Shown: positions 27,737 to 29,875 of the stretch, one piece after another
How the letters are laid out: the number at the start of each line of letters is the position of its first letter
Numbering within the stretch: the first letter of the stretch is position 1
Assembly (NCBI GenBank): GCA_003514005.1
Contig: DOSJ01000004.1
Span: 165,533 to 229,532, forward strand
Direction of reading: 5' to 3'
Length of the DNA stretch: 64,000 nt
Source of the DNA: Candidatus Falkowbacteria bacterium
GTDB taxonomy: Bacteria; Patescibacteriota; Patescibacteriia; Patescibacteriales; UBA12075
Notes under the pieces: generated by a model
What the model was told of the DNA's origin: nothing
The model's database searches: none
What the model saw: only the letters and a program-made list of their open reading frames with translations
Program-made: the position numbers and the translations under genes

Positions 27737-29875
27737 ATGGATAAAAATACTATAAAACAAAGAATCGAAAAACTGAAAGCCGAGATTAATCATCATCGGT
27801 ATCTTTATCATGTAGAAGATAAACAGGAAATTTCTGAGGGAGCTTTGGATAGTTTGAAGAATGAGCTATTTAAACTCGAGCAAGAATATCCAGAATTTGT
27901 GACAGCAGATTCGCCGACACAGAGGGTAGAGGGGCGTGTTTTGGAAAAGTTTGAGAAAGTGGCGCATGAACCGGCACTGTTGTCTTTGTTTGATGCGTTT
28001 TCTTTTCAGGATATGGTGGATTGGGAGAAACGAATTGGGAAATTTTCGATTTCCGATTTCCGATTTGCGAATTCGAAAATCGAAAATCGGAAATCGGAAA
28101 TCGTTTTAGATTATTTTTGTGAATTGAAATTTGATGGACTTGCTATGAGTTTGATATATGAAAAAGGAATATTTGTGCAAGGCGCGACACGTGGGGATGG
28201 TAAGGTGGGTGAAGATGTTACGAATAATTTAAAAACTATTGAAAGTATTCCTTTAAATTTAAGAATACCAGATAAACTAGAGCTAGAAAAAAGTGGATTT
28301 AATCAAGGGCAGATTGGTTTACTGCTTGATGCGGTGCAAAATGGAAAGATGGTGATTCGCGGCGAAGCTTTGATGACGAAAAAGGTTTTTCAAGAGTTGA
28401 ATGAGAAATATGCAAAAGAGGGGAAAAAGCCTTTGGCAAATCCGCGTAATGGCGCGGCCGGATCTATCCGGCAGTTGGATCCGAAAATTTCGGCTGAGCG
28501 GCGTTTGGATTTTTATGTTTATGCTATCGGCAATGCCGAAGAATTAAATCTGGATACACATGAGCAGGAACTTTTGATTGCAAAACTTTTGGGATTAAAA
28601 GTTTATGCGGATTATAAATATTGCCGGAATCTGGACGAGGTGCAGAAATTTTATGAACAATGCGAAAAAAGGCGTGAAAAATTGCCCATGGAAGTTGACG
28701 GCGTTGTAGTAAAAGTAAACAATTTGAAACTTTGGCCGGTACTTGGTATTGTCGGCAAGGGTCCGCGTTATGCCATGGCCTACAAGTTTGCGGCCGAAGA
28801 AGCAACGACCAAACTTTTGGATGTTGTTTGGCAGGTTGGCCGTACCGGAACATTAACACCGACGGGCGTGCTTACGCCTGTGCGTGTTGGCGGGGTAACG
28901 GTTTCAAACGTAACACTTCACAATATGGACGAAATTCAAAGACTGGGTCTAAAAATCGGTGATACGATAATTATTGAACGCGCTGGCGATGTTATTCCAA
29001 AGGTGATAAAAGTTTTGGAAGGTATGCGTGATGGTAATGAAAAAACAATTGATGCTCCGGAAAAATGTCCGATTTGCGGGTCAAAAGTAGAAAGAATAGC
29101 CGGTGAAGTCGCTTATCGCTGTACAGACAAAGAGTGCTATGCTGTTAATCTTCGCCGTTTGGCACATTGGACTAGTAAAGGCGCGATGGATATCGAAGGG
29201 TTGGGACCAAAGGTTGTAGAACAGCTGGTTAAGGCTGGATTGGTTCGTGATATTGCGGATTTTTATTCGCTCCGTGAAGAAGATTTAAAACCATTGGAAC
29301 GGTTTGCGGAGAAATCGGCCGAGAATTTGGTCAAAGCGATTGCGGTAAAGCGAGAAGTGGATTTGGCGCGGTTTATTTATGGACTTGGGATAAGGCATGT
29401 TGGGGAAGAAAGTGCAATATATTTAAGTAAGAAGTTAGAAGTTAGAAGTGAGAAAATTATTGATTTAAAAAATGTTGTGATAAAATTAAGTTTAGCTGAT
29501 TTGGAAGAGTTTGAGGATGTGGGGCCGATTGTGGCGAAGAGTATTTTTGATTGGTTTCGGGATGAGAAAAATATTAATTTATTAGATAAATTAGAAAAAA
29601 ACGGGGTTGTGATTAGACATCAGGTAACAGGTAACATGCAACATAGTATATTTTTTGGAAAAACTGTAGTTTTGACAGGGACATTAAGTGGGTTGACAAG
29701 GGATGATGCAAAGGCTAAAATAAGGGAATTAGGGGGTAAAATCGCTTCTGCGGTCAGTAAAAAAACTGATTTTGTGGTTGCGGGGTCTGAGGCAGGGTCG
29801 AAGTTGGAAAAGGCTAACGAACTGGGGGTTAAGGTTTTGAGTGAAGAAGAATTTTTAGGGATGATAAAAGCTTGA
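27737..29875 (+). CDS. ligA: NAD-dependent DNA ligase
   Basis: Adenylation motif [10 protein letters not shown] fold, Cys4 zinc finger (CPICGS...CTDKEC), HhH region and C-terminal BRCT. Confidence 0.95.
28047..28103. repeat. perfect 20-bp inverted repeat of TTCCGATT words inside the ligA CDS
   Basis: CGATTTCCGATTTCCGATTT (28047-28066) and AAATCGGAAATCGGAAATCG (28084-28103) flank a 17-nt loop containing GAATTC. Translated in frame as [20 protein letters not shown]. Confidence 0.9.
29425..29454. repeat. AGAAGT word tract in frame inside ligA
   Basis: AAGTAAGAAGTTAGAAGTTAGAAGTGAGAA spans 30 bp and encodes [10 protein letters not shown] between the HhH and BRCT regions. Confidence 0.7.

Follow-up and report, generated by a model that had tools for sequence, protein, structure and literature searches.

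How does an essential gene come to hold, in frame, a palindrome built of seven-nucleotide units? Each slip of a non-triplet repeat is a frameshift, so that such repeats would be expected to be excluded from essential genes. The DNA ligase gene ligA of Candidatus Falkowbacteria bacterium nevertheless carries one, within a stretch of 64,000 nucleotides (contig DOSJ01000004.1, positions 165,533 to 229,532, assembly GCA_003514005.1) that was analysed as a whole and is called the window here; coordinates count from its first letter and all features are given on the forward strand. We conclude that the element is probably a slippage-prone heptanucleotide microsatellite in palindromic form, a member of a clade-wide class of repeats dwelling at gene boundaries, and that LigA bears it as a passenger in one of its permissive loops. 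Its composition, the excess of period-7 arrays, the hot spots for such arrays in LigA, the length of the site and its predicted disorder, the slippage and turnover of sister arrays and the filtering of stop codons make up the evidence.

The host gene (27737..29875) encodes an NAD+-dependent DNA ligase of 712 residues, as judged from its open reading frame (ORF), its match to the E. coli enzyme and its Pfam content (Nlig-Ia, DNA_ligase_aden, OB, ZBD, HHH_2 and BRCT). A phmmer search against PDB aligned the product with E. coli LigA (2OWO) from end to end (E = 4.7e-166), and the intact full-length ORF has the domain order of a LigA: Ia, adenylation (KxDG), OB, Zn finger, HhH and BRCT. The palindrome spans 62 nt at 28042..28103 (codons 102-123), a position referred to below as site 1, and was delimited by Tandem Repeats Finder (TRF), an inverted-repeat search, a period-7 scan and folding. 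The array (ATTTYCG)n comes first and its reverse complement, (CGRAAAT)n, second; TRF reported ATTTCCG x4.7 at 28042-28074 and TCGAAAA x4.4 at 28073-28103. A preliminary description of this DNA had claimed a perfect 20-nt inverted repeat with a 17-nt loop, in frame in ligA, and direct reading verified its coordinates: the left arm CGATTTCCGATTTCCGATTT lies at 28047..28066, the centre GCGAATTCGAAAATCGA at 28067..28083 (with GAATTC at 28069-28074) and the right arm AAATCGGAAATCGGAAATCG, the exact reverse complement of the left, at 28084..28103. Perfect arms and centre together correspond to codons 104-123. Because both arms are tandem arrays of 7-nt units, several arm registers are possible, and the inverted-repeat search lengthened the arms to 27 nt at 93% (28047-28073 / 28077-28103), while another register gave 30 nt at 90%. 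TTTT borders both arms, the left one belonging to the array register, and no clear target-site duplication was found when the flanks were read. The palindrome ends five codons ahead of the adenylation motif ELKFDGLA, which it had correctly been said to precede, and eight codons ahead of K131 (28127..28129). This residue is the adenylation lysine of the KxDG motif (ELKFDG), assigned by alignment to CELKLDG of E. coli and its K115M mutant 5TT5; K131, D133 and G134 are invariant among 70 LigA homologues.

Neither chance nor faulty assembly offers a convincing account of this structure. The 15-mer TTCCGATTTCCGATT occurs 12 times in the window with up to 2 mismatches, compared with 0.57 expected occurrences. 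The hairpin folds with -35.4 kcal/mol as RNA (z = -3.7) and -25.7 kcal/mol as DNA (z = -5.4), and in both cases 0 of 200 shuffles were as stable. Given the excess of the word and a fold stability beyond every shuffle, the palindrome is not a chance product. Repeats and palindromes are able to break or chimerise assemblies, and the related contig L166 does terminate within an array; still, we see practically no chance that an assembly or scaffolding artefact produced the palindrome. The source genome corresponds to Candidatus Falkowbacteria bacterium GW2011_GWC2_38_22 / GWE1_38_31 / GWF2_38_1205 from groundwater, and the identical LigA protein was found in 33 index blocks and at least 14 contigs (NCBI, JGI, ENA, Logan), a cluster in which no length variants were seen. 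Independent assemblies of different samples, made with different assemblers, contain identical palindrome DNA (L169, identical at 100%; L170; and L171, whose single mismatch lies elsewhere), which excludes the misassembly that the preliminary description had wished to see checked. In L170, ligA seemed at first to differ by 7 nt, but this difference is an N run at a scaffold gap. In addition, 62 nt are shorter than a sequencing read, the ORF is open, and homologues carry related arrays at the same LigA site.

Site 1 is a place at which LigA varies strongly in length. The distance between the motifs SLxDAF and ExKxDG is 40 residues in the window LigA and up to 53 in relatives, compared with 24-28 residues in nearly all LigA sampled from other bacteria (maximum 32). 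The element adds about 14 residues, and the alignment with E. coli LigA has gaps at this position, so that the proposed lineage-specific insertion is borne out by the orthologues. Across 120 homologues (60-73% identity, all of Patescibacteria type), site 1 may lack an insert altogether or hold up to about 45 extra residues, and the inserted sequences are unrelated. An AlphaFold2 model from a 70-sequence alignment reached a mean predicted local distance difference test (pLDDT) score of 87, with values below 50 solely at residues 109-120 and 631-634. The modelled adenylation domain superimposes on solved LigA adenylation domains with template modelling (TM) scores of 0.87-0.94 and root-mean-square deviations of 2.0-2.9 Å. 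The extra residues are thus predicted to form a disordered surface loop between helix 90-101 and the strand 126-132 that bears K131, in agreement with the earlier expectation of a surface loop tolerating the segment (pLDDT below 50 at 109-120). According to the model, the insertion lies at the surface, where it can be accommodated, and leaves the fold of the host protein intact.

Two further heptamer arrays are translated in the same gene. Site 2 is an (AGAAGTW)n array at 29425..29454 (TRF, alignment), inside the HhH domain and not palindromic. Site 3, found by TRF and the period-7 scan, is an array of (CAGGTAA)2 plus degenerate units at 29621..29644, translated as QVTGNMQH in the linker between HhH and BRCT; it overlaps the second low-confidence region of the model (pLDDT below 50 at residues 631-634). 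The preliminary description had rightly recognized the AGAAGT tract at 29425-29454 as an in-frame array and had placed it between the HhH and BRCT regions, whereas it lies within the HhH domain; the array that does occupy the linker, 29621-29644 (VTGNMQHS), had been missed. Three tandem heptamers traverse all three frames and therefore encode a fixed 7-residue peptide. We compiled a dictionary of every heptamer-derived 7-mer and scanned it over homologues, counting perfect runs of at least 3 units. This yielded 41 runs in 36 of 121 LigA homologues, where about 1 would be expected by chance according to our estimate. All 41 map to window residues ~103-113 (site 1), ~563-573 (site 2) or ~625-631 (site 3), and the window LigA has arrays at all three hot spots. 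The same test on GatA, which served as a control, returned 0 of 121 homologues, which shows that not every protein has such arrays. LigA sites 2 and 3 and the variable loop of gatA were also examined for palindromes and had none. Between lineages, the words at one site differ by one or two bases (AATTACG, AAATTAC, AATTTCG, AATTTTC, AAATTCC), which is what mutation of a unit followed by homogenisation would produce.

The translated words bear marks of their coding context. An (AGAAGTT)n array contains TAG once per three units, and in translated AGAAGTT arrays KKLEVRS is always followed by K, E or Q, encoded by AAG, GAG or CAG. These are the three sense codons one first-position step away from TAG. 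KKLEVRS occurs at site 1 or 2 of nine homologues (P0010, P0013, P0016, P0019, P0025, P0027, P0030, P0069 and P0071) and also in the window at 29425-29454, where the unit that would yield TAG reads AGTGAGA; at site 3 of the window, CATGCAA replaces the unit that would yield TAA. Freedom from stop codons in every frame of both strands is limited to 12.5% of AT-rich heptamers and, among the window's families, to ATTT[CT]CG (ISDFRFP on one strand, RKSEIGN on the other). A two-armed palindrome within an ORF requires such a word because both arms must stay open, and the two-armed in-ORF structures of the ATTT[CT]CG family are those at ligA site 1 and at site B of a GT4 gene described below. Traces of selection appear visible in the replaced stop codons and the stop-free words. 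A protein search with (ISDFRFP)x6 was uninformative, its only hits being spurious short ORFs that overlie long arrays of Xanthomonas, Paraburkholderia and Moorena. As a separate observation, GC-rich perfect hairpins are translated at the LigA hot spots of other Patescibacteria, for example CCCCCTCCTTATCTAAGGAGGGGG in L083, and the site-1 peptides PLLKGG, PLSKGG, SLRRRG, TSLKLRG and TRQASTS are found in L083, L085, L087, L165 and many homologues. The recurrence of these hairpin peptide words across lineages suggests further families of in-frame hairpins.

Could the loop have been kept because it benefits the protein, as a new flexible linker or interaction surface? Insertions do persist at the same three sites over many lineages, the loop is predicted to be disordered, and selected disordered regions born from repeats have been described for Borgs (PMC9879509). 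However, sequence, length and presence vary freely among relatives (24 to 53 residues), it is the DNA word, not any conservation of residues, that dictates the peptides, and the repeat class is mainly intergenic. We therefore give an adaptive loop only a faint chance. The loop most likely has no role in ligation and would be a putative tolerated, presumably neutral passenger that entails a risk of frameshifts.

A comparison with relatives suggests how the array at site 1 came about. The LigA of L001 is 73% identical, and its gene has the left arm and the centre in common with the window, the units being GATTTCA there and GATTTCC in the window, a concerted difference. Its right side is a different array, (ATTCGAC)x4.4, and is not palindromic. 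The right arm of the window, in turn, is homologous to AAATCNN arrays of relatives at 70% identity (L163, L164, L165): site 1 holds four AAATCNN units in L163, AAAATCAAAATTTAAT alone in L164, and AAAAATC units broken by two GC hairpins in L165. Since it is partly shared with relatives at 70-73% identity, the array is old and has been repeatedly remodelled; the locus predates the split of these lineages and is not a recent insertion. The perfect arms of the window point to recent homogenisation between the arms, for which intrastrand template switching on the hairpin may have been the route.

These comparisons also bear on whether the hairpin itself has a function, be it as a stem that resembles an attenuator or terminator, as a target of RNase III or as a pause site for ribosomes, which would tune the ligase level or the folding of its domains. 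The stem is very stable, its 20-bp arms are perfect and UUUU follows; intergenic members of the class take the positions of terminators or processing stems, the compact ones preceding T-runs, and L007, L083, L085 and L087 have unrelated hairpins at this LigA site. Yet conservation of a hairpin at site 1 had to be rejected: of the LigA genes with an insertion, only those of the window, L007 and L087 show significant folding, which those of L001, L163, L164, L004 and L165 lack. LigA sites 2 and 3 are not palindromic, promoter and terminator scans gave nothing at the palindrome, and at this place Rfam returned no family at threshold, only sub-threshold generic hairpin matches to miRNA precursors. 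A functional nucleic-acid structure is thus very unlikely in our view. Intrinsic terminators combine a short GC-rich stem, a loop of 3-8 nt and a T run. The ligA palindrome does not fit this description, as its stem is long and AT-rich, TTTT alone follows it and the consensus scan was negative.

The ligA element is one of many in the window. Period-7 arrays, its dominant repeat, were counted under a strict and a looser scoring scheme, giving 13 arrays at period 7 versus 0-2 at periods 4-12 and 28 arrays versus 2-13 at other periods, respectively; taken together, the tallies are 27-28 at period 7 and 0-13 at periods 5, 6, 8, 9 and 10. The window has 4.2 arrays per 10 kb, as against 0.22 per 10 kb in a control, a difference of about 20-fold; the control comprised 1.3 Mb of ligA neighbourhoods from other phyla, in which periods 6 and 9 dominate. 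The underlying LigA search of genome contigs had returned mostly distant bacteria, with L003-L008 as the only Patescibacteria, and the others were used as this composition control. The AGAAGTW family is present at 7 loci of the window, where none would be expected, and the ATTT[CT]CG family at ligA site 1, after gatC and in three places of the GT4 gene; CAATAMT and ATTACAA are further main word families. The array after gatC (GATTTTCGATTTTCGAATGTCGATTGTCGA, 30335..30364, period-7 scan) begins at the gatC stop codon and is related to the ligA words. It had been described, together with the GT4 arrays, as using words identical to those of ligA. This applies to the GT4 vocabulary, whereas the gatC array at 30335-30364 has the related words GATTTTC / GTCGATT. 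The gatC-gatA spacer measures 206 nt in the window versus 20-29 nt in L001, L164 and L165.

Many arrays form inverted pairs, which make long AT-rich hairpins; in the window such pairs lie, for example, at 1296-1357 / 1371-1432, 4396-4428 / 4538-4567, 12115-31 / 12265-81, 32886-926 / 32943-72, 44878 / 44959 and 46850 / 46927. The intergenic pairs bracket a spacer, the first array beginning 1-26 nt past the stop codon (one overlaps it) and the second ending about 4-11 nt ahead of the next start codon or tRNA. Thus (AATAATC)x9 faces (GATTATT)x9 at 1296..1432 (TRF), and (AGAAGTW)n faces (TTCTAAC)n across a spacer of 108 nt at 4396..4567 (TRF, period-7 scan), a pair that starts 1 nt past a stop codon and ends 6 nt ahead of a start codon. 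The pair (GAAGTAA)n / (TTCTTAC)n with its T-run at 32886..32972 (TRF), in the spacer between dsbA and tRNA-Ser, exemplifies the class in its usual position. AGAAGTA-type arrays stand upstream of tRNA-Ser genes twice, at 9494-9534 and 32886-32972 (tRNAs at 9737-9810 and 32977-33063, about 200 and 5 nt away), which may be a coincidence. A survey of related genomes covered 29 heptamer-rich loci with 386 kb and 171 arrays. Neighbouring arrays up to 400 nt apart comprised 26 inverted, 6 direct and 19 unrelated pairs, and 69 of the 171 arrays lie well inside ORFs of at least 200 residues. The heptamer class is patchy among Patescibacteria and strong at many loci.

Slippage of a sister array was observed directly. 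The GT4 gene (window 43727-44890) holds two in-frame hot spots. Site A is a (GATTTTC)x4.7 array at 43907..43939 (TRF), read as DFRFSIFDFRF. Site B is a composite at 44226..44340 (residues 167-205, TRF): (ATTTCCG)x4.6 occupies 44226-44257 and is separated by a short centre from (AAAATCG)n at 44269-44286, after which come a nested hairpin rich in GC (about 44287-44324) and, at 44325-44340, (ATCGAAA)n. L167, an independent assembly of the same population, matches window 41014-47890 over 6,870 nt with 0 mismatches; the sole gap, at 43907-43939, removes exactly one GATTTTC unit. The difference is single-unit slippage at site A. Loss of the unit (L167 2860-2990) splits the gene into ORFs of 70 and 289 residues and makes it, from its sequence, a candidate phase-variable surface-glycosylation gene in a bacterium of the candidate phyla radiation (CPR).

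Between close relatives the hot spots carry different elements: in-frame palindromic elements of protein genes have been gained, lost or swapped at the helicase and at GT4 site A relative to L168 and L166. These two contigs represent a close relative with genes 90-94% identical in DNA (the contig of L166, SRR7589087, begins at gatA). At GT4 site A, L166 has an in-frame GC-rich hairpin in place of (GATTTTC)n. A UvrD/AddA-type helicase gene (1417-4395) contains an in-frame composite at 1969..2024, recognized from its sequence and by comparison with L168: units of AGAAGTW type, (GAAGTWA)3 at 1969-1989 and (GAAGTAA)2 at 2011-2024, surround a GC palindrome at 1990-2010 with the 16-nt perfect palindrome TGCCTGCCGGCAGGCA. 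Its 18 residues (EVRSKKLAVPAGRQEVRS) are absent from the close relative's protein (P0274/L168, L168 1560-1680), although the gene is about 90% identical. More distantly, the GT4 orthologue of L165 (63% identity) is 24 residues shorter, and different heptamer arrays occupy its two hot spots, with (AAATTCA)n at site B. Spacers turn over as well. In L166, a palindrome of another family, which also occurs in the window at 16312-79 and 32013-32101, replaces the (GAAGTAA)n / (TTCTTAC)n pair between dsbA and tRNA-Ser; the gatA-dsbA spacer (L166) and the ORF-helicase spacer (L168) differ from those of the window, and the 1296..1432 pair is replaced in L168.

It was further observed that such spacers are exchanged whole for unrelated elements, palindromes included: window 32886-32972, 32013-32101, 1296-1432 and 4396-4567 have their counterparts at L166 2451-2519 and 1503-1737 and at L168 926-1055 and 3945-4416. 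Both versions of the dsbA-tRNA-Ser spacer are a long hairpin with a T-run, as though terminator-like modules had been exchanged. Within a 472-nt spacer of L168, ARAGORN called an 87-nt tRNA-Arg(GCG) at 4157-4243 that has no Rfam support at the gathering score; at the position of this putative tRNA the window holds the AGAAGTW inverted pair only.

We propose that replication slippage would generate the arrays, that template switching, either intrastrand or by copying between loci, may form the palindromes, and that selection would purge the copies that break proteins. The survivors within ORFs would be those in loops that tolerate extra residues, such as the three LigA sites, and those with stop-free words. 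At ligA, three to four units of ATTTCCG type precede four reverse-complement units, with both arms translated. Several observations weigh against so simple a scheme. All assemblies are identical at ligA and no copy-number variant of its array was seen; slippage at this locus is therefore inferred from the sister arrays and from the comparison between lineages. Words recur at several loci per genome (14.8% of within-locus pairs versus 6.3% between loci), the 5' flanks are alike at ligA and both GT4 sites, and whole elements are exchanged between close relatives. Taken together, the recurrence of words, the likeness of flanks and the swapping of elements indicate copy-and-paste or recombination, for which slippage alone is insufficient. 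Moreover, the perfect 20/20 arms could stem from selection for pairing instead of recent template switching.

The same observations speak for the main rival explanation, a discrete mobile element, comparable to a miniature Rickettsia palindromic element (RPE), a transposable element of the miniature inverted-repeat type (MITE) or a REPIN, that was moved by an enzyme encoded elsewhere and inserted in ligA and other sites, the heptamer arrays being its ends in inverted form or marks left where 7 bp of target were duplicated. The word family, the architecture and the 5' flank (GAA..GA...TGGRAATTTYCG) are common to ligA and GT4 sites A and B, words recur within genomes at the rates given above, and elements are present, absent or replaced at the exact same positions in close relatives, also in frame. 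GC hairpins are nested between direct copies of units in the helicase (1969-2024), in the GT4 gene (44269-44340) and at site 1 of L165, and the right arms at 4537-4567 and 32942-32972 share their order of unit variants at 97% identity. On the other hand, there is no full-length consensus, as centres and arm lengths vary between copies, and no clear target-site duplication at ligA. The scanned window genes (27 directly, the ligA neighbourhood from precomputed hits) included no transposase-like gene. The partial sharing of the ligA locus by relatives at 70-73% identity argues against a recent insertion, and the single-unit change in L167 is ordinary slippage. Overall, we consider a discrete mobile element unlikely, and the slippage-prone microsatellite palindrome remains the probable reading. 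The preliminary description had inferred a selfish-palindrome process analogous to that of Rickettsia. Its in-frame turnover is found in this genome and its relatives, but a discrete RPE-like unit at ligA is not: the element is a heptamer microsatellite in the form of a palindrome, whose copies have no full-length consensus.

A broader possibility, which we regard as doubtful, is that Falkowbacteria-like Patescibacteria possess a dedicated process that writes or exchanges heptamer arrays and hairpins at gene boundaries and in a few protein loops. A possible agent would be an enzyme that duplicates 7 bp of its target or copies hairpins from a template. If this were true, the arrays would be swappable terminator or insulator modules and, as in the GT4 gene, phase-variation switches, with copies of the ligA type as collateral; they would form a novel type of small element, mobile or self-propagating, and offer a new route from non-triplet repeats to protein.

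Several other repeats and genes of the window deserve mention. A GC-rich hairpin family with the word TTGTCATTCCCGCGAAGGCGGGAATC occurs at 473-517 / 585-614, 5090-5119, 6425-6454, 9064-9108 / 9180-9209 and 13884-13928 / 14014-14043, often as inverted pairs around intergenic spacers, and its copy in L166 is the one in frame at GT4 site A. A third palindrome family, TAATGTCTAAATTATAATTTCTAA... plus its complement, is found at 16312-16379, 20275-20310, 32011-32101 and 58004-58059; in the close relative its copies are at other loci (L166 2451-2519, L168 about 970-1045). MITE-like structures lie in the gatC-gatA spacer, where the perfect 15-nt inverted repeat TTTTTTGTCATTTCG (30378-30392 / 30485-30499) encloses 92 nt, and in the ligA-gatC spacer, where a 31-nt inverted repeat at 94% (29890-29920 / 29980-30010) encloses 59 nt. 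A second HisRS-like gene consists of two overlapping ORFs, 23123-24133 (336 residues, catalytic) and 24111-24536 (141 residues, anticodon-binding), and is either frameshifted or naturally split. Finally, a direct repeat of 172 nt (54898-55069 and 56863-57034, 91% identity, 1,965 nt apart) flanks a prenyltransferase-like gene at 55270-56862.

Neither heptamer arrays nor in-frame palindromes were found described for CPR/Patescibacteria in the full-text literature searched, which scarcely covers subscription journals, and non-triplet repeats at conserved sites of essential genes appear to be undescribed so far. Here, 7-nt arrays are translated at three loops of a DNA ligase throughout a clade of ultra-small bacteria, a natural case in which the dynamics of DNA repeats create and erase protein segments. 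The LigA hot spots mark permissive sites, and the GT4 gene suggests that surface glycosylation is likely to be phase-variable in this uncultured member of the CPR. Some caution is also called for, as variation of protein length in CPR bacteria and broken genes in metagenome-assembled genomes may stem from heptamer arrays. Should an active mechanism drive the swapping at the hot spots, it would amount to a new kind of mobile DNA.

How do these arrays compare with known systems? Elements of the REP/BIME/REPIN type are GC-rich imperfect palindromes of 20-40 nt with a GTAG or CGTC head, accompanied by a genomic RAYT transposase. The ligA palindrome does not belong to them: its arms are AT-rich heptamer arrays and lack a GTAG or CGTC head, and no Y1-transposase domain was present among the scanned window genes, with the scope given above. 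The palindromic elements of Rickettsia, reportedly described by Ogata and colleagues in 2000, are a closer parallel. Like RPEs, the Falkowbacteria elements are hairpin repeats that are both intergenic and fused in frame into conserved housekeeping genes, at permissive positions and with an open frame through the element, in small reduced genomes. The terminal-inverted-repeat stem-loop of RPEs and MITEs is seen, and so is uninterrupted in-frame fusion into conserved genes (ligA, helicase, GT4). RPEs measure 105-146 bp, have family consensus sequences and 12-bp terminal repeats, and are confined to Rickettsia (PMC2229807). The ligA element, in contrast, has 62 nt of tandem 7-nt units, a consensus limited to the unit and slippage-driven change, and is an inherited, remodelled locus of Patescibacteria; instead of a discrete unit of ~100-200 bp with a family consensus, the copies at ligA, GT4 and gatC share word and layout.

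With long simple sequence repeats (SSRs) of 7 nt, including the cyanobacterial heptamer repeats, the arrays have in common tandem heptamers far above chance, and we count them in this class. As summarised in PMC4679880, heptamers are the favoured unit of long SSRs, for which polymerase slippage was proposed (Mrazek et al. 2007), and long SSRs are mainly intergenic direct arrays, unit lengths that are not multiples of three being reportedly avoided in coding regions. Whole-unit variation typical of SSRs is present at 43907-43939, while the ligA array is identical in all assemblies and shows concerted differences between lineages. The Falkowbacteria arrays differ in being translated at conserved hot spots of an essential enzyme and in often forming inverted pairs. 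TAACTGA direct repeats are known from marine Beggiatoaceae, some cyanobacteria and Bacteroidetes (PMC4679880). They resemble our arrays in their positions a few nt upstream of starts, in occasional ORF copies near protein termini or outside domains, and in an orientation limited by stop codons in the word. Beggiatoaceae, however, use one fixed word that is almost only direct, whereas Falkowbacteria use many words with common inverted pairing, and TAACTGATAACTGA had 0 matches in the window with up to 2 mismatches.

As far as excerpts of PMC8262952 and PMC12721329 describe them, the hmw genes of Haemophilus influenzae are phase-variable contingency loci with 7-bp repeats, in which a change in unit number switches or tunes a surface-related gene. 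The GT4 array, one unit apart between assemblies and with a broken ORF, resembles these excerpts' account; the ligA copy differs from it, being located in an essential gene for which an OFF state would be lethal, and variants were not seen there. The tandem repeats within ORFs of Borgs have unit lengths that are all divisible by three (PMC9879509). Both there and in Falkowbacteria, fast-evolving DNA repeats add disordered segments to proteins and homologues carry repeats at the same places, but the Falkowbacteria unit has 7 nt, so that three units are read in three frames and give a period of 7 residues.

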